Source of the DNA: Pseudovirgaria hyperparasitica
Taxonomy: Eukaryota
Assembly (NCBI GenBank): GCA_010093815.1
Contig: ML996575.1
DNA length: 64,000 nt
Strand: one strand, 5' to 3'
Positions 2,805 through 46,283 of the stretch are shown here, piece by piece (positions within the stretch are counted from its first letter, which is position 1; every line of letters begins with the position of its first letter). The notes beneath the pieces were generated by a model. The model was not told the DNA's origin. It ran no database searches and saw nothing but the letters and a program-made list of their open reading frames with translations. A program made the position numbers and the translations under genes.

Positions 2805-5800
2805 GCGACCTTGAGAAGCACATTGGAAAGCCAACATCGCATGGATTGCATACTTTTATGAATCTATACTATACACCGCGAATCAGAGACGACACGACAC
2901 GAACATAGAGGCAAAAGTGGCCCGAGGCGTCAAAAAACAATGTTTGCTAAATTTATCGACTGCGATACACGACACATGGCTAAGTCTCGGGCCATACTTC
3001 GACATGCCAATCGACTCTCACATGCAGTTATACTCTTATGATACCCCTGGGATAGAAACGACCTGTGTTTATACCACCACGCTGGTGGGATTTATGTTGT
3101 TTGTTACGATTACCACGCATGTGTCACGGCTTTATAGATAGGGCAGGATACTGGGGAAAGTCACGAAATGAGATGCAGGCCTGCATTTTCCAGACTGCAG
3201 CAAGCAAGCGGATTGCCTGCGCACTATAAACAGCCCAGGTTCCAACAGACCGGGAGGGGAGAGCAAAGCAGTACCTAGCATCACTGGGCCGTGATAGCCA
3301 GACGACCGATTCAACACATCTAGAACGCAAATAGACGCAAATAGAGGATAGAGACAGAGACAGCGACAGAGAGAGTGACAGAGAGACAGAGAGACAGATA
3401 GAATTGAAAAAAAAAGAGAGACTTGAATCATCAACAGACGTCCCGTGAAACTGGCAAAGGATTCACCCAAAAAAATAGAGTTTTAAAGTTTACGCTACAT
3501 GTGTCTGACAAGTAATCGTCACACAGCATCATGTCTGTCCCCGGCGACCCGTGGAGGTTCACAGCACGGTCCAGGTGGTGAATCATGGATGGATGGATGG
3601 ATGGATGCGCGCAGAAATGATCGCCAGGCACAACAACGCAAACACATACATACATATACATACATTTATTGCGCCGCAAGATGGTCGATGGTCCTGCATA
3701 TATATACGACTAGGAAGGAATAACATATCCTACATATATCCCATGCCAGACCTCTCTCACGAATGAATCATTCCACACTCCACCTCCCCCTCCACCACCA
3801 CCTCCTCCTATCCTCCCTCCCCCGAGAAGAAAAAAACCATCTCTCCTAACCAATCCCCCAAGCGCAACCCATCAACCTCGTCCGTCCTCCGAGCGTCACG
3901 AAACCAGGTACTAACTACCTAGCATCATTCCATCAACCCCGCAGTCGCAGTCGCACTCCTCCTTCCACATTCCGCATCATGCGCCGCGTCCTCCGTGCTC
4001 GGTCCTCCACGCGGTGCAGGGACCCGAGCTTGACCTTGGGCTTGAGCTTGGCCTTGACCTTGACGGCGGCACCGCGGGTGCTCTGACGTGCTCGTGCGAG
4101 GTTTGGACTAATTAGAGGTACTGCTACTACACTATCCGGTCAAAGAATACCCCCCGACCGGACCCGACCTGATGATCCCTGGAGCTAATTAGACCGCCGG
4201 TGAAGCGGCGAATCGGCGAGTCGGCGGGTCGGCGGCTGGAAGAAGAAGGAGGGGAAGAGGCATTACTTGGGACGGCTGGATGGATGGATGGATGGGATGG
4301 ATGGCGCTTGGGGTACGTACCTACCGTGCGTTCCTGTCCCTCTTAGGTAAGTAGGTATGTAAGTAAGGAAGTAAGGACTGGGTGGATTGTATATCTCGGG
4401 TTTGGTGGTTTGGTGGTTTGGTGGGACTTTCTTTTTCGTAGTGTTACATAACGCCAGTCTTGCTGTTATCCATGGCTATGACTGACTACCTACTGGTAAT
4501 ACCATCACGCACGATTCGAAGGGGAGAAGGAGAGAAAGAGCGAGCCCCCCACGCTAAGAGGGACGAGCGGTGCGTGGCGCGCGGACGGGCTCGGCGATGG
4601 CGGCGGCGGCGGCGGCGGCTAAGCGAGGTGCTAGTTAGGTATGGATGGTATGGTATTTGAATTTTTGTCAATGGGATGGTAAATTGGACTAGGAAGAAAT
4701 GCCGGCTTGCTTGCTTGTTGTGGGTCTGCTGGTTTGATGTATGAGCTTGGTTGATTGGAAGGATCGTAATGGTTGATATATACGTGACGACTATGGAATG
4801 TACAGCATGTGTGTTTATTGGTGGGATGTATACGCTGTGGTTATATAGCACGGTAGGTGAGGTGTGAGGATATGGGTGAGATGTAGTGATGGATATCCTG
4901 TTTGGTTCATTGAAGGGACTTATTTCGGAGGAACTTCTTTGGTACGGAGGAGGGGCTGGTGTTTGGACTTGGTATTAGTACAAACAGTAGTATCTAGTGT
5001 TGTCTAACAAGCCAGTCAACTATACTGCCCATCTCCGCATCTGGCCAGGATGATATTCTAGCATTATAGTGTTCCAGACAACTTCTTGCATATACTACTC
5101 ACCACTAGAGAACAAATTACAGTTCTAGCGTGACTCATGACGACGACGTCAAGACGGATTCTGAAAAGAAAAAAACAGCGCAGATCGTTGTTCATGCCAA
5201 CTCATGAGTTTAATTGTCACTCAGATGTAGACTAATACCGTTTGCTCCAACGGAATATAAAGACGAGCTTTCCTGCCATCTATCCATCTTGCATCTTGAC
5301 TGGCGCGTCTTACCTAGGAATTACTTCCCCTGGTCATGGGCTGGAATATTGGAGTAATACGTACATGTAAAAACTGGAATATAGCTATAAGTTTGATATC
5401 TCGATGTAAGATGCTACCTCATCCTGGATGGGCATTGGGCATAGAACATGTAAGTATCTGACTGATACTATTACCATGCGATTATTCTGCTACGTTCGTT
5501 GTTCAAATAAGTTTCGAGTTTCTTATATAGTCTGATGATACGCACACCTTCGTGACACAATAACTTAACACCTAGATACAAGACGCGGCTGCTCGGGAAC
5601 ATGTTATCTCAGGTGCTAGATTCAGCAGTACTACCTGGAACATAGATAGTTCCGCGATGATCGATGAGATGGATACGGTTCTAGGAGTGATTTCTTTTCT
5701 CTTTCTTCTCTACAGGTAAGTGAGAAGGCAGATATAGAATAGAACAACTCCATCTGTACAGGGAACAAAGGCTTGATTTTATTGGAAGCTTCTGATACGA

Positions 5801-36890: not shown

Positions 36891-39800
36891 ATGTCTCTCT
36901 GCGCCCGCGCAGGTCGCGCAACTTCAAAGCTTCTGCAGCAACCCACCACATATCGACTTTCCCGGCGATGCCTTAATACATCCGCTGCTCATCCTCGGCC
37001 AGTTTTCGTCTGCAGGTCGCAGCTGAATTCGCCCAAAAGTCAATTGCGATCTTTCACAAGATCTGCAGTCGCTAGGAATGCCTCTCAAGAGGCCCCGAAC
37101 TCTCAAGCATACTTGAACAGTGGTGCAATCTCAGGGGCTAGGAATCTTGTCAACGTAAAGAAGGTACTCGTCATTGGCAGCGGTGGCCTCAGTATTGGGC
37201 AAGCTGGTGAATTTGACTACTCTGGTGAGTCACGAGTGGGCGATCAGGCCTGGTCACAATATTAGCACCGATATAACTTACCTCACTTTGGCATATAACT
37301 ACAACAGTATACGAGACCAATAGCTAACGAGTGCAACGCATAGGGTCCCAAGCTCTCAAAGCCCTCAAGGAAGCGGGCGTTCAGTCGGTTCTCATTAACC
37401 CTAACATCGCTACCATCCAGACCTCCCACGTCCTAGCAGATCAAATCTATTATCTACCAGTCACCCCTGAATACGTCACATATGTCATTGAAAAAGAAAG
37501 ACCAGATGGCATCTTCCTCAGCTTTGGTGGCCAGACCGCCCTTAATTTGGGTGTGCGCATGAACAAGATGGGTATCTTCGAGCGATACGGAGTGCAAGTT
37601 CTTGGTACGAGCATCAAGACTTTGGAGACCAGCGAGGACCGAGACCTCTTCGCCCAAGCACTCAACGAGATCAATATTCCTATTGCAGAGTCCATTGCCG
37701 TTTCGACCATCGATGAGGCCCTCAAAGCTGCAAGCAAGATCGGGTACCCCATTATTGTGCGTGCTGCTTATGCCCTTGGTGGTCTAGGATCTGGCTTCGC
37801 AAACAATGAAGAAGAACTTCGAGATCTGTCTGCTCGCTCACTTACCCTCTCTCCTCAAATTCTGGTCGAGAAATCCCTGCGAGGCTGGAAGGAGGCTGAA
37901 TATGAAGTGGTACGCGATGCCAGTGACAACTGTATCACTGTGTGTAATATGGAAAACTTTGACCCCCTTGGCGTTCACACTGGTGACAGCATCGTCGTGT
38001 CTCCCAGTCAGACTTTCAGTGACGAGGAATACCACATGCTCAGGTCTGCGGCCATCAAGATTGTCCGCCACCTAGGCGTTGTAGGCGAATGTAATGTGCA
38101 ATATGCTCTGCAACCCGATGGTCTCGACTACAGGGTCATCGAAGTCAATGCCCGTCTCTCCAGGTCTTCGGCTCTTGCATCCAAGGCTACTGGCTACCCC
38201 CTGGCCTACACCGCAGCCAAAATCGGTCTTGGTCACACTCTTCCTGAACTACCAAACGCCGTGACAAAAACAACAACTGCAAACTTCGAGCCTAGTTTGG
38301 ATTACATCGTGACCAAGATGCCTCGATGGGATCTCAGCAAATTCCAGAACGTCAAGCGCGATATCGGAAGTTCGATGAAGTCTGTCGGCGAGGTAATGGC
38401 CATTGGAAGGACGTTTGAAGAATCGTTCCAGAAGGCTTGTCGACAGGTTGACCCTAGGTTCCTCGGCTTCCAAGGCGACAAATTCGACGATCTTGATGAA
38501 ACCCTCAGGAACCCGACGGATCGCAGATGGCTCGCCGTTGGTCAAGCTATGTTCCACGAGGGCTATTCTGTGGACAAGGTCCATGACTTGACCAAGATTG
38601 ACAAGTGGTTCCTGTACAAGCTGCAGAATATTGTTGATTGCACCAACGAGCTGCAGGAAATTGGCAGCCTCTTCGGCCTCCGACAAGAGATCATTCTCAA
38701 GGCCAAGAAGCTGGGTTTCTCTGATAAGCAAATCGCCAAGGCTGTCAACAGCACCGAGGACGAGGTCCGCGCTCGCAGGAAGAGCTTTGGTATCAAGCCT
38801 TGGGTCAAGAAGATTGACACTCTTGCTGCTGAATTTCCAGCGGATACTAACTATCTCTATACTACTTATAATGCCAGTTCTCACGATGTCACTTTCGACG
38901 ATCATGGAGTTATTGTACTTGGGAGCGGTGTCTACCGTATTGGCAGCTCCGTCGAATTCGACTGGTGTGCTGTCAATGCGACCCTGTCGCTGAACAAACT
39001 CGGCAAGAGGACCGTTATGATCAATGTGAGTCGAAATGCATATATTGTATTTCTCAAGTCTCGCCATCCCCGGACCCCTTTTGCTTCTCTACGACATTGC
39101 TCGCTCTTTTCTTCGATGGATATCTTCTTTCCTTCCTCACTTCATTTCATTACGTTTGTGCACAACATCGTCGCACAGTAGATGTTTTCTCAATTTTGTC
39201 CATTCGCTAACTTGAATCATAGTGTAAGCCTTCTCCCCATCACATCATTGACCCCATAATCCCCTCACCCGGGGCACGATTCTGGAATGCCTGGTCACCG
39301 TATTGCGTTCCTGCCGGATACCGGATATCCGAAGCAACATCCCCATCTGTATCGATTACATCAATTGCCCGTTCCCAGTCCAATGCCTCTAACCAAATCC
39401 CTGCCACTGAGTATCGCACATCAATTCCCGTCCCTGGAAATTGTCAAAGCATCTGGCTATCGTCAACAATCACTTCAATCATCATCATGGCTACCGTTGC
39501 CCTGAATTTGTCCCCATCTCGCCGCGATATTGTTATCTACCGGGCTCCCTACTCACTTCCAAGCCATTTGTTCATTTGTTTCCTCTTGCAACGTATAGCT
39601 AACTTTGCGCAGACAATCCAGAAACCTATAGTACTGACTTCGACGTCGCCGACAGACTGTACTTTGAGGAGCTGAGCTATGAGCGGGTGATGGATATCTA
39701 TGAGATGGAATCTGCCACCGGTGTAGTAGTATCTGTCGGAGGCCAGCTCCCCCAGAACATCGCTCTCAAGCTTCAGGAGGATGGCAAAGCGAAGGTTCTG

Positions 39801-41151
39801 GGCACAAACCCCAACGACATTGACAAGGCCGAGGACCGACACAAGTTCTCGCAGATTCTCGACTCGATCGGTGTTGATCAGCCTGCGTGGAAGGAGCTTA
39901 CTTCGTTCCAAGAGGCTAAAGAATTTGCCAATTCTGTCAGCTATCCGGTCCTGGTACGCCCTAGCTACGTGCTCTCTGGTGCTGCCATGACCGTCATTCA
40001 CTCAGAAAGTGAGCTGGAAGAGAAGTTGACAGCTGCGAGCAACGTCTCTCCTGACCACCCTGTCGTCATCACCAAGTTTATCGAGGGTGCCCAGGAGATT
40101 GATGTTGATGGTGTTGCGTCAAATGGCGAGCTACTTATCCACGCCGTCAGCGAACACATTGAAAATGCGGGCGTTCACTCTGGAGATGCCACATTGGTGC
40201 TACCACCGGCCTCTCTTTCCGAGGATATCATCAAGCGCGTCAAGGAAATTGCTCAGAAGGTCGCCAAGGCTTGGAGTATCACTGGACCTTTTAACATGCA
40301 GATCATCAAGGCTGAGGACCCAGAAGGTGGCGAGCCGGCGCTCAAGGTCATCGAATGCAATCTTCGTGCCTCTCGATCGTTCCCCTTTGTCAGCAAGGTC
40401 TTGGGTACCAACTTCATTGATGTTGCTACCAAGGCTCTTGTTGGTAAGGATGTTCCTGGACCTGTCGACCCGATGGCGGAGAAGAGAGATTATCTTGCGA
40501 CCAAGGTGCCTCAATTTTCGTGGACCCGTCTCGCTGGTGCGGACCCATACCTGGGCGTTGAGATGGCTAGCACGGGTGAGATGGCTTGCTTCGGGACGAA
40601 CCTTGTCGAAGCCTACTGGGCCTCTATTCAGTCCACGATGAACTTCCGCATGCCTGAGCCCGGGGAGGGTCTCCTGTTTGGAGGCGATATCAGTGCGCCC
40701 CACCTGGCCAAGATTGTAGACTACATCAACCCGTTGGGCTACAAGCTGTATGCCGCAAACGAGGAGGTGAAGCAACATCTCGAGCAGGGATCCAAGGACA
40801 ACAGCGTGAGCGTCGAAGTGATTGAATTCCCCAAGCAGGACAAGCGTGCGCTGCGCGAAGTCTTTGAGAAGTACGACATCCGCGGAGTCTTTAACTTGGC
40901 CAAGGTCCGCGCGAGCAGCTTGGTGGATGAGGACTACGTTATGAGGAGGAACGCGGTCGACTTTGGCGTTCCATTATTCATGGAGCCACAAGTAAGTTTT
41001 GGACTCTGACATGTTTGCACGCGCGTATTAACGACCCAACCAGACCGCTGTGCTTTTCGCGCGATGCATGAGCGAGAAGCTCCCCAGGAAGGAAGGTATA
41101 CCCCCAGAAGTGCGCCCGTGGACCGACTTTGTCGGCGGCAAAGTGATCTGA
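36891..41151 (+). CDS. CPA2: Carbamoyl-phosphate synthase arginine-specific large chain with mitochondrial presequence. Exons 36891-37224, 37344-39025, 39223 (1 nt), 39613-40991, 41044-41151
   Basis: R/S-rich presequence, then [26 protein letters not shown], two ATP-grasp halves ([34 protein letters not shown]), [20 protein letters not shown], and a C-terminal MGS-like domain ([15 protein letters not shown]). There is no glutaminase, DHOase or ATCase part, so it is not URA2/pyr-3. Confidence 0.96.
39223..39223 (+). other. CPA2: Single-nucleotide microexon (T) of CPA2
   Basis: The upstream intron 39026-39222 is GTGAGT...GCTAAC(39206)...TAG and the downstream intron 39224-39612 is GTAAGC...GCTAAC(39598)...CAG. 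AAT|T|AC AAT CCA GAA gives N-Y-N-P-E in frame with ORF 39687-41009. Confidence 0.85.
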
Positions 41152-43100: not shown

Positions 43101-43381
43101 AGAAGTTGCCTGTTTTGGAGTGAACTGTTGGTTGGTTGGTTGGTGGGTTGATTGGCGGGTTGATCAGGGGGTTAGAGTCATGGGATTAGTTAGTTAGATG
43201 GGATGTATATACAAGTGAAGAAAGAGGAAAAAGGGAAAAGATGAATTTGAAAAAAAAGAATGAAAAACAAAAATTCTATTTTCGACGTGTCTATTCGGCA
43301 TCTACTACTACCTACTACCCTCATCACTCTCAGCCCTGTCTGTCCAGAACAGCACTACCCTCCCCTCCACCCACATCCTCA

Positions 43382-45664
43382 TCATCCACCCTCCGACTGC
43401 TCTTCCTCCTCCCCAACAACAGCCGTATTCCTACCAACCCTCAACGGCAGCGGCACAGCCGCAACCTGGCTATACACCCTCTCCTGCCTCACCCTCTCCT
43501 GCCCCACCTCCCCCAGCCTCACCCTCTCCTGCATCACCCTCTCCCGCCTCACCTCCCCCAGCCTCACCCTCTCCCGCCTCGTCTTCCCAACCGGCAATCG
43601 CAATTTCAGTTGTAATGCAGCTGGTGCAGCTGGAGGAGGTGGTAAAGGCGGTACCACCCTCTGCCTCTGCCCCTGCCTCTGCCCCTGCCTCTGCCCCTGC
43701 CTCTGCCCCTGCCCCCGCTGATCAGGCACCTGCTTGCCCGGCTTCGCCGTCGAACGGTGGGAGAGCGATGAGGCGAGGGACTCGTGCGAGGTGCGGGGTG
43801 TTGTGTGGGGAGAGGAAGAAGAGGAAGAGGTGGTGGTGGAGGCGGTGGTGGAGGCGGTGCGTGGGGAGGATGGGTGTGAGGATGTGTGCAGAGAGCGGTG
43901 GGAGGGAGAGGGGGAGGGAGAGGGGGGTTGAGACGGGGATTGGGATTGGGATTGAGATTGTGATGGTGATTGGGATTGGGATGGTAGTTGTGATGGGGAG
44001 TGAGAAAGAGAATGAGAAAGAGCCGGCGAAGACGAAGACGAAGACGAAGCACAACCCTGCGTCCGGCGCGAGAAATTCGTTGCATCGGCAGATGCCTTCC
44101 CAGCAGTCAGCGGTCGAACAGCATGCTGCGAGTCCGTAGCCGTCTTGGGTATCACTGCTGCTGGAAGCATCGTCACCGTCAGCGGCGCACCCACACGCTC
44201 CCCAGCCATCACAACAGGCACAACCTGCACCCCCCCATCCACCACAGCCTCATCCCCAAGCCCACCCAGCCCACGCACCTCAGCACCGCGCCCAACACCA
44301 CGCGCATCATCCGTCTTCTTACGCGGCGGGACAGCCGGCACAACAGCAGGAACAGGCGGCTCAGGCAGAGGCAGTCTCAGCGGCGGCGGCGAAGTGAGCG
44401 CGGCTGGCAGGGCCTTTTCAGGGGGGTGGGAATCGTGAGGCTTGGGGACCGGGGGTGTTGCGATTCTCAGGGATGGCGGGGGAGAGGGGTCTAGGGAAGG
44501 TGGTGGTGGGGATTTGAAGGTGCGGGTGTCGAGGATGTCGTTGTTGGAGCGGGAGGCTTTGTTGGTGGTGGTGGTGGTGGTGGTGGTTGAAGGGGGTGGG
44601 TTGGCATCTCGGCTGGTGTCTGGTCGGTCGATTTGACGATACGAGGGGTGTAGTGGGATGGGGTTGGAGATCTTTCGGTAGACGACGCGTTCTGAGCTTG
44701 GTTGTGTATGGACACGACGATGATGATGATGATCGCGCCCTCTGCCTGCGTGAGCCACAACCTTACCGCCGCTCTTCACCGACCCAGGTTTCTTCAATCC
44801 AATCCTGGGCTCCTCTTTCCGTCTCGACCGCAGCATATCCACCCTCTGCTTCACCAGCAAAGCTTTCCTCTTGTACCCCAGCCTGAAACCAACCGGCACC
44901 TCATTCCCATCCTGACCATGCCGTCCACGAGCGAGACCCGTACCGCCATGCGACGACGCCGACAACACCTCACCAGCCTTCCGCAGACCAGCACCATCGT
45001 CCACCACCGCCACCAGCGTCGATGAAGCAGAAGCAGAAGCAGAAGCAGAAGCAGAAGCAGAAGCAGAACCAGAACCAGAACCAGAAATCAACCCCTCGAC
45101 CACACCCCCCAACTCCCTAAGCCCACGCCTCAGCACAAGAAACGCCTCCTCCTCCTCCTTCTCACGCCTCGCCCCAACACCACCACCAGCACCACAACCA
45201 GCACAACCAGCACCACCCCTCAACCCCTCAACCACGCCCCTCAACTCCGCCCTCTCCCCCCTCAACCGTGCCGAAACCCGCCTTTCATCCTCGAGCTGCC
45301 GGGCCAAAGCCTGCTTGTCGCCCTTTAGCCTCTGCACCTCGCGCTCGAGGCTGTCGTTGTGCGCGCGGGCTTCGTCTATGTGGTGTTGGAGGTTGGCGGT
45401 GAGGGACTTGAGGATGTCTTGTGGGTTTATGGTTGTGGTTTTGTTGCTGGCGGTGGATAGGGGGTTGGATAGGGGGTTGGATAGGGGGTTGGATAGGTGG
45501 TGTTTCGTGGTGGTGGAGGGTCTTGATGTGGATGTGGATGTGTTTGTGTGTGAGGCGTCTGTTCGGGGGGGTTTGATGGTGGAAGAAGAAGAGGAAGAGG
45601 AAGATGTAGCAGTAGTAGATATGCTGGATAGGAGGCCTTTGAGGCCAAAGTGTGGGGGTGACAT
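43382..45664 (-). CDS. Hypothetical low-complexity protein with an N-terminal coiled-coil (760 aa)
   Basis: 760-codon open frame with a heptad segment (LQHHIDEARAHNDSLEREVQRLKGDKQALARQLEDERRVSARLRGERAEL) and many in-frame simple repeats. Confidence 0.55.
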   Translation of the reverse strand: MSPPHFGLKGLLSSISTTATSSSSSSSSTIKPPRTDASHTNTSTSTSRPSTTTKHHLSNPLSNPLSNPLSTASNKTTTINPQDILKSLTANLQHHIDEARAHNDSLEREVQRLKGDKQALARQLEDERRVSARLRGERAELRGVVEGLRGGAGCAGCGAGGGVGARREKEEEEAFLVLRRGLRELGGVVEGLISGSGSGSASASASASASASASSTLVAVVDDGAGLRKAGEVLSASSHGGTGLARGRHGQDGNEVPVGFRLGYKRKALLVKQRVDMLRSRRKEEPRIGLKKPGSVKSGGKVVAHAGRGRDHHHHRRVHTQPSSERVVYRKISNPIPLHPSYRQIDRPDTSRDANPPPSTTTTTTTTNKASRSNNDILDTRTFKSPPPPSLDPSPPPSLRIATPPVPKPHDSHPPEKALPAALTSPPPLRLPLPEPPVPAVVPAVPPRKKTDDARGVGRGAEVRGLGGLGDEAVVDGGVQVVPVVMAGERVGAPLTVTMLPAAVIPKTATDSQHAVRPLTAGKASADATNFSRRTQGCASSSSSSSPALSHSLSHSPSQLPSQSQSPSQSQSQSQSPSQPPSPSPSPSHRSLHTSSHPSSPRTASTTASTTTSSSSSSPHTTPRTSHESLASSLSHRSTAKPGKQVPDQRGQGQRQGQRQGQRQGQRQRVVPPLPPPPAAPAALQLKLRLPVGKTRRERVRLGEVRRERVMQERVRLGEVGQERVRQERVYSQVAAVPLPLRVGRNTAVVGEEEEQSEGG

Positions 45665-46283
45665 GCTGGGTATACAACTCTATAAAGGTTAGGGGCTGGG
45701 CAGGGGATCGAAGGCTCGTGTAAGTTTGTGAGAGGAGGGTGAGAGAAGGAACGACCTGCGGGCTTTCACAGCCCTAAATACCTCCTTCATCCTCGTCCTC
45801 CTCGTCCTCGTCCTCCTCCAAGCCATCAACAACGTCGTCCTGTCTCACGCCAACAAAGCACCTTCAGACAAAGAAATTACATTGTGAAGAGATACCTACC
45901 ATCAATCAAGCTGAACAGCGCAAGGATGAGACCGACGACACATTCTGAACAACATAATAAAACGGTGGCGTCCCCCAAGGACAAGCCAAAAAAATATGGT
46001 TGGTGGTGTATGTACAGTCTGTCGTCTATAATAATGGCATATGCGAGGAATCGAGTATAGAGTTCCACCAAAGCCAGTTGTATGTATATATGTATGCCAT
46101 CCGACGTCTGAAGACGTCCCTAACCACTGCGATAGATTAAACAAAAGGGATTCAAAGCCGTGGGCTGAATGCTTATAATGCATGGAATGTTTTCTTGATC
46201 TCAATGCCTCTCGCTCGCTATGCAAAACCTGATAAAAATGTGCTCCCTGATTCGATATTACAGTCATGTCATGTTATTAAGTA

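Follow-up and report, generated by a model that had tools for sequence, protein, structure and literature searches.

Exons of a single nucleotide have been described in both plants and fungi. One is found in the APC11 gene of Arabidopsis (Guo and Liu 2015, PMC4674806); plant APC11 and VPS55 genes both carry such exons, that of APC11 having been traced across land plants (PMC8831610). In fungi, a long-read annotation of Coprinopsis cinerea counts 13 exons of 1 nucleotide (nt) in 13 genes (PMC12230235), and the Fusarium P450 gene CYP621A contains a one-nucleotide exon for which its authors claim priority among fungal genes (Nelson and Syed 2026, PMC12940212). Here we describe a further case in a 64,000-nt stretch of contig ML996575.1 of Pseudovirgaria hyperparasitica (GenBank assembly GCA_010093815.1; this whole stretch is called the window). 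The gene concerned (36891..41151, + strand) is, as judged by homology, CPA2, encoding the arginine-specific carbamoyl-phosphate synthase (CPS) large chain of a Dothideomycete. With high confidence, its third exon is a single T (39223..39223, + strand) flanked by complete introns of the U2 type, 197 nt long upstream and 389 nt long downstream. As one-base exons are already described, the CPA2 case is a new example and not a new kind; a literature search, with supplements outside it, found no report of a one-base exon in CPA2 and none on carbamoyl together with microexon in fungi.

The CPA2 exon can be set against each of these systems in turn. That of APC11 is likewise internal and constitutive, a single base flanked by two GT..AG introns and missed by annotation, and its authors also argue for intron definition and for removal of the introns one after the other, combined with a recursive model (PMC4674806). 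The APC11 exon, however, belongs to a plant, was shown by reporter constructs and reverse transcription PCR and is conserved across land plants, whereas the CPA2 exon is fungal, is seen in the contigs of one sample only, is absent from the relatives sampled and comes with an intermediate from which the upstream intron was removed first. CYP621A, like CPA2, is a gene of a filamentous ascomycete in which one base inside the codon of a conserved motif keeps the frame; transcript reads confirm that exon, and gene models fail without the base (PMC12940212). It differs in that its exon is a G in AG-G-GT, which fits both splice consensuses, in an interruption of ∼139 nt shared by 20–24 orthologues of a rarely expressed gene; in CPA2 the exon is a T, the interruption spans 587 nt, the arrangement appears lineage specific and the gene, which has a housekeeping function, is highly covered. 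The Coprinopsis exons share with CPA2 a fungal origin, the length of one base, discovery via transcripts and premature stops upon omission; unlike CPA2, they are from a basidiomycete and are given as annotation counts, with no CPA2 case named in the available passages of that source (PMC12230235).

Exon 2 of CPA2 closes with ...ATG ATC AAT, its last base being 39025, and is followed directly by GTGAGT (39026–39031), the donor of intron 1 (39026..39222, + strand; 197 nt). This intron has GCTAAC at 39206–39211 and a TAG ending at 39222; it is in phase 0, between the Asn and Tyr codons, and is placed by the sequence and an X2 contig (see below). The lone T is followed by GTAAGC (39224–39229), the donor of intron 2 (39224..39612, + strand; 389 nt), which has GCTAAC at 39598–39603 and a CAG ending at 39612, is in phase 1 inside the Tyr codon and is placed by the sequence and contigs; exon 4 then begins with AC AAT CCA GAA from 39613. 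A single T therefore stands between two introns that each have a donor, a branch site and an AG, the branch site GCTAAC lying 9–11 nt before the YAG in both. Including the T restores the Tyr of the conserved motif MINYNPET, with the T as the first base of the codon TAC. Leaving it out breaks the frame; when 39026–39612 is cut as one piece, the protein continues as TIQKPIVL... to a premature TGA. This TGA (39673..39675, + strand; open reading frame 39223..39675) is reached upon skipping of the T or retention of intron 2, and a premature TAG (39179..39181, + strand; open reading frame 37328..39181) is reached upon retention of intron 1. The donors, branch sites, acceptors, lone T and two stop codons had all been named in the initial annotation of the stretch, and every one of these positions proved exact when checked against the sequence and its open reading frames.

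Because the base after 39025 is a G and the base before 39613 is also a G, no single GT..AG cut yields AAT-T-AC. A scan for single introns (GT/GC..AG; donors 39000–39059, acceptors 39540–39679) returned six in-frame solutions, none of which has the conserved motif. The motif was held to be conserved from the outset, and this is borne out by the homologues: MINYNPETYST is read in 101 of 120, and Tyr or Phe occupies that place at normal spacing in 109 of the 120. The compound signal CTAAC-N(4–25)-AG-N-GTRAG has one occurrence in the window, both strands counted, and this is the one at the junction, against an expectation of 0.20; 17 of 100 shuffles contain at least one match anywhere. Scaled by arithmetic from this window estimate, the chance of the signal is ∼0.001 for a 587-nt stretch of one strand and ∼0.0002 when N is T. 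No stop codon interrupts intron 2 in the frame continued from exon 2 via the T, which stays open for 130 codons plus 20 into exon 4 before the TGA; this open frame matches no Pfam family and probably reflects the C/T-rich composition of the intron.

Evidence for the use of these splice sites comes from the Logan assemblies of two runs, X1 and X2, which belong to one sample of one study and whose contigs were placed on 38700–39950. X1 and X2 contain 96% of the sampled words of the CPA2 gene, and all eight contig records are at least 99% alike to the window, with no other letters and no gaps. The stretch 38700–39025 is covered at a depth of 229 in X1 and 556 in X2, and 39613–39950 at 299 and 764, respectively; against these exon depths (229–299 in X1, 556–764 in X2), intron depth is 0–6.3 in X1 and 0.08–24.6 in X2. 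From the ratio of exon to intron depth and from the spliced contigs we infer that the two runs, which are without an RNA record, are complementary DNA (cDNA)-like.

In both runs, 39025 is joined to 39613 (skipping 587 nt, GT..AG) with exactly one T between them. The X1 inclusion contig (2555 nt, depth 228.8) covers 38700–39025, has the extra T and then continues with 39613–39642; the X2 inclusion contig (60 nt, depth 753.3) consists of 29 letters ending at 39025, the T and 30 letters from 39613. A half-spliced contig of X2 (449 nt, depth 24.6) joins 39025 to 39223 (skipping 197 nt, GT..AG) and runs unbroken to 39642. Because this intermediate joins 39025 straight to 39223, the T of the mature joint is 39223. 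The inner acceptor is used directly in this X2 joint, and the inner donor is used as well, because no single cut can supply the T of the mature joint. Unspliced forms run across 39222–39224 at a depth of 6.3 in X1 (39089–39642) and 3.5 in X2 (39077–39237), and intron-containing forms reach ∼1–3% of the depth of the mature form (X2: 24.6 and 3.5 vs. 753; X1: 6.3 vs. 229). The initial annotation had anticipated the inclusion joint, which is present in the cDNA-like contigs of both runs, and had argued from the Tyr codon that the T is needed, with which the AAT-T-AC joint agrees; removal of the introns one after the other, likewise foreseen, is supported by the half-spliced contig. It had predicted two intermediates, and the one lacking intron 1 and retaining intron 2 was found in X2, whereas the one lacking intron 2 and retaining intron 1 has no counterpart among the X1 and X2 contigs, which drop rare variants. 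The skipped joint AAT-AC does not occur among them either; contigs losing rare variants, its absence from the RNA is not implied.

These contigs bear on the simplest alternative, namely that 39026–39612 is a single 587-nt intron with an assembly error accounting for the missing base, or that a frameshift has made the gene a pseudogene, with the internal AG-T-GT being due to chance. Thirteen related loci do have one GT..AG intron at this position that ends directly before a Tyr or Phe codon, and the ...CAG|AC of the window is the same minus one T. However, the X2 contig that joins 39025 to 39223 keeps intron 2 and so has the inner acceptor in use; the mature contigs carry the T, and an X1 contig reads 39089–39642 exactly as the window does. 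An indel error that would make a single intron sufficient, the outcome by which the first reading could have failed, is contradicted by these same contigs. The inner branch site, acceptor and donor are, moreover, all consensus (chance ∼0.0002), and, against a pseudogene, the remainder of the gene is open, is 85–86% identical to homologues and is highly covered in the cDNA-like runs. We assign this alternative a probability close to nil.

Could the joined contigs stem from DNA, for instance from a processed, intron-less copy elsewhere in the genome? The library kind of X1 and X2 is unknown and they carry no RNA record, which would allow for it, but exon depth exceeds intron depth at least 36-fold, and neighbouring exons differ (556 vs. 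764 in X2). Together with the half-spliced form, these depths make up a pattern of RNA processing and not of a retrocopy, and a processed copy, if there were one, would still preserve the outcome of the same splicing. An origin from DNA is therefore most improbable.

Against the one-base exon as we read it stand the following points. The evidence consists of contigs and not of raw reads, from runs whose library kind is not on record, and both runs come from one sample and may belong to the very project from which the assembly came. The shorter side of each joint measures 29–30 letters, under the 31-letter bar for a bridging record; the sides fall short because contigs built of 31-letter words end where graph paths part. 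Positions 39036–39077 have next to no cover in the contigs. The order of removal is taken from one intermediate contig in one run, X1 holding the fully unspliced form only. Lastly, no relative shares the arrangement, which leaves the T exon without comparative support.

The protein encoded with the T included has 1167 residues and aligns without a gap at the joint to four homologues (P0003, P0005, P0007 and P0045), with 970–1006 identical residues. The underlying model was built by homology and comprises five exons joined by coordinates, with introns of 119, 197, 389 and 52 nt. Exon 1 (36891..37224, + strand; assigned by homology) starts with the ATG at 36891, would encode a presequence and the start of the first synthetase half and ends in ...EFDYS-G, in phase 1; it is followed by a 119-nt intron (37225..37343, + strand; GTGAGT ... 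GCTAAC ... CATAG) placed by homology only. Exon 2 (37344..39025, + strand; Pfam and contigs) encodes the first ATP-grasp half, the oligomerisation domain and the start of the second pre-ATP-grasp domain and ends in ...TVMIN, in phase 0. The third exon, the T, is placed by the contigs and the protein alignment as the first base of the Tyr codon in N-Y-N-P-E-T. Exon 4 (39613..40991, + strand; Pfam, alignment and contigs) starts with AC, the rest of that codon, and encodes the second ATP-grasp half and the C-terminal region; a 52-nt intron (40992..41043, + strand; GTAAGT ... TTAAC ... CAG), placed by homology only, separates it from exon 5 (41044..41151, + strand), where alignment of the CPA2 model puts the stop codon TGA at 41149–41151.

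Large-chain domains lie on either side of the break: exon 2 has matches to Pfam CPSase_L_D1, D2 and D3, and exon 4 to the first two of these. The model has two tandem synthetase halves and, according to Pfam, no fused GATase, DHOase or ATCase, as is the case for CPA2; an MGS-like domain is not listed by Pfam at E ≤ 0.01 in the model. The best 120 matches of exon 2 are fungal arginine-specific large chains, 87–94% identical with Dothideomycetes topmost, and many of them carry the source name arginine-specific large chain or CPA2. In a FastTree tree of the window protein and 51 of the 120 homologues, picked as named representatives (69 omitted), the window CPA2 forms a lone branch within a well-supported Dothideomycete clade of 30 rows.

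How would a T between two introns be joined into the message? Each intron has its own consensus donor, GCTAAC branch site and YAG acceptor and should be recognisable alone by intron definition. The intron 1 acceptor and the intron 2 donor share the letters AG-T-GT, and factors bound to both sites should exclude each other; owing to this overlap, the introns are most likely removed in turn. In the single intermediate seen, intron 1 has gone first, and intron 2 would then be removed, leaving a mature message in which AAT-T-AC encodes Asn-Tyr at the conserved start of the second synthetase half. We lean towards removal of intron 1 first as the usual order, which fits the order of transcription, the intron 2 branch site being made ∼390 nt later.

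Touching introns that are removed consecutively are also known in the form of stwintrons, which occur in the same fungal group, the Pezizomycotina, and consist of two U2 introns as in CPA2; in contrast to CPA2, a stwintron has an outer intron whose donor, branch site or acceptor is broken by the inner one and there is no remainder, and stwintrons have been linked to one-base shifts of intron position (PMC5587772). The stretch 39026–39612 was considered as a stwintron and this identity was ruled out: both of its introns have intact signals, and the T stays in the product.

In recursive splicing, a long interruption is excised in successive 5' to 3' steps at ratchet points or zero-length exons, where acceptor and donor abut directly. 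CPA2 resembles a ratchet point in that an acceptor adjoins a donor and removal probably proceeds stepwise in that direction. It differs in that the donor of a ratchet point is rebuilt by the first ligation and no base remains, whereas the intron 2 donor of CPA2 is complete beforehand and one base remains. Recursive splicing of this kind is also brought up by the authors of the APC11 study (PMC4674806).

The first reading of the stretch went further and proposed a switch, in which skipping of the T or retention of an intron leads to a premature stop and nonsense-mediated decay (NMD) lowers CPS according to the supply of arginine or amino acids. Skipping or retention does give early stops at 39673–39675 and 39179–39181, intron-containing forms are present at the ∼1–3% of mature depth given above, and some plant VPS55 genes yield forms with and without their one-base exon (PMC8831610). 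In the only sample at hand, though, inclusion is dominant, and no skipped joint occurs among the contigs, which is a weak argument as rare variants drop from contigs; low-level intron-containing RNA is expected of any gene. The arrangement is found in 0 of 78 readable related loci (described below) and is hence not a conserved device. In fungi, arginine regulates this enzyme via the upstream open reading frame of the arginine attenuator, whose target is the small subunit, and both subunits are subject to general amino-acid control. On/off control coupled to NMD thus finds no support, and we regard the switch as very unlikely. In our reading, the one-base exon is constitutive and a side effect of the gain of intron 2, and not a control device.

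The origin of the two introns was approached through 80 related loci from one metagenome scan, 24 of which are only 53–61% identical and possibly non-orthologous; 78 of the 80 are readable at the junction (L006 and L049 are not), and close relatives of the organism are not among them. In 53 loci there is no intron at the junction. One interruption exactly at the position of intron 1 is found in 15 loci; in 13 of these it is a GT..AG intron of 60–2224 nt that ends directly before TAY or TTY (ATG in L021). Three others (L005, L008 and L051) have an intron at the position of intron 1 and a further intron close behind, with small exons between the paired introns (25 nt in L005; 3 nt, then 17 nt in L051). 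An intron lies 10–21 nt further downstream in L016, L017 and L058, and one base upstream (AA|...|T) in L050, L052, L055 and L060. The position of intron 1 is accordingly occupied in 18 of the 78 readable loci (the 15 with a single interruption plus L005, L008 and L051), while none of the 78 has a Tyr codon split by an intron behind its first base or, accordingly, the one-base exon. On this comparison of sequences, intron 1 is taken to be the old intron of the position. Because the position of intron 2 is found in 0 of 78 loci and that of intron 1 in 18 of 78, intron 2 is probably a later arrival specific to this lineage, gained as a whole between T and AC.

Introner-like elements are recognised by near-identical intronic copies in other genes and by a stable predicted structure. 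Neither was seen for intron 2: blastn of both introns against the 64-kb window and the 80 loci gave chance-level matches only, with no second copy of intron 2, and the predicted fold of intron 2 is poorer than that of shuffled versions (z +2.12), intron 1 being unremarkable (z −0.80). Rfam has no match at E ≤ 1 in 38950–39700.

A different origin would start from one long ancestral intron that lost a base at its acceptor, a cryptic inner AG-T-GT then being recruited to restore the frame. This scenario was proposed by Nelson and Syed for Fusarium CYP621A (PMC12940212), and the combined 587 nt fall within the 60–2224 nt of single introns at this position in relatives. It needs, however, a ready-made branch site, acceptor, right base and donor at the moment of the frameshift, again at a chance of ∼0.0002, and the frameshift would hit a gene that is needed for arginine synthesis. 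Both borders of intron 1 match the old position exactly, and one insertion after the T explains the arrangement in a single step. Rescue via a cryptic inner exon is therefore rated below gain of intron 2; we consider it unlikely, if by no means as far-fetched as the alternatives above.

Several of the related loci are unusual around the same junction. In L051 (2493–2902), a model joined by coordinates has a phase-0 intron of 58 nt, an exon TAC of 3 nt (2551–2553), an intron of 267 nt, an exon of 17 nt and an intron of 55 nt. This locus resembles CPA2 in having the same old phase-0 intron, a tiny exon TAC that is the same Tyr codon and an extra intron. It differs in that the extra intron comes after the whole codon, with the result that skipping keeps the frame, in that a 17-nt exon follows, in that the introns are unrelated in sequence and in that it is known from DNA alone. 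A search for a cDNA counterpart of L051 found none, the nearest loci being ∼80% identical in DNA.

In L013 (∼3022–3372) and L023 (∼3022–3438), GCTAAC plus 10 nt precede the Tyr codon and the orthologous intron ends in GG and CG, respectively, instead of AG; L023 has no AG in the 61 bases after the branch site. On either side the frame of both genes stays open for over 450 codons, and the acceptors of the two loci may lack AG and lie at a constant spacing from the branch point. L008 (∼3220–3320) has a second small intron without an evident GT donor after a 25-nt-like piece. Taken over all loci, intron positions crowd the first ∼25 bases past the junction, being found one base upstream (AA|T) and after 10, 14, 20, 21 and 25 nt; counting the positions in the window and in L051 as well, the junction resembles a hot spot at which introns are gained or slide.

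Two stronger statements may be built on these observations. One is that productive CPA2 mRNA, owing to the overlap of the inner acceptor and donor, depends on a strict order of the two splicing steps, the share of message in which the outer sites pair and the T is skipped, or which stalls with intron 2 in place, being set by kinetics and cleared by NMD. The other, which is wider, is that the first 25 bases past the junction are a recurrent Dothideomycete hot spot of intron gain beside the old intron, with exons of 1, 3, 17 and 25 nt and acceptors without AG. We give this pair little credence, barely more than the switch; were the strict order true, the arrangement would be a condition-sensitive throttle on arginine synthesis that is absent from relatives.

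The locus is of interest as an ascomycete housekeeping gene, highly expressed, in which a one-base exon has support from transcripts. The half-spliced intermediate bears on the order of removal, a point left open in the Arabidopsis paper (PMC4674806), and the apparent recent gain of an intron one base from an old one is a natural test of how near to each other two introns can lie. Annotation is affected too: gene predictors will disrupt or distort CPA2 at this point, and the junction merits manual curation in Dothideomycete genomes.

Public CPA2 proteins are indeed irregular at this place: 8 of the 120 have a deletion, an insertion or a garbled stretch starting exactly after ..MIN. Together with a ninth protein, from Aaosphaeria arxii, which has Asp for Tyr, the oddly annotated homologues are P0009, P0015, P0026, P0047, P0068, P0114, P0103, P0115 and P0017, and they are scattered over the tree; besides A. 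arxii, the species concerned are Rhizodiscina lignyota, Neohortaea acidophila, Saxophila tyrrhenica, Kalmusia sp., Botryosphaeria dothidea, Saccharata proteae, Cryoendolithus antarcticus and Emmonsiellopsis sp. The insertions LTPPM and LTPPP correspond to a CTAAC branch site read as Leu-Thr, and in the arrangement of the window the Asp of the A. arxii protein would be the first intron base, G, read with AC. In a search for the DNA of these homologues, the nearest loci were 83–95% identical over 224 residues and none was of the same species. Judged from the protein sequences, their junctions are likely annotation errors at complex introns.

Elsewhere in the window, the region 43200–45700 contains, on both strands, long overlapping open frames rich in Pro, Ser and Thr with short repeats, one of which, on the minus strand, encodes 765 residues.

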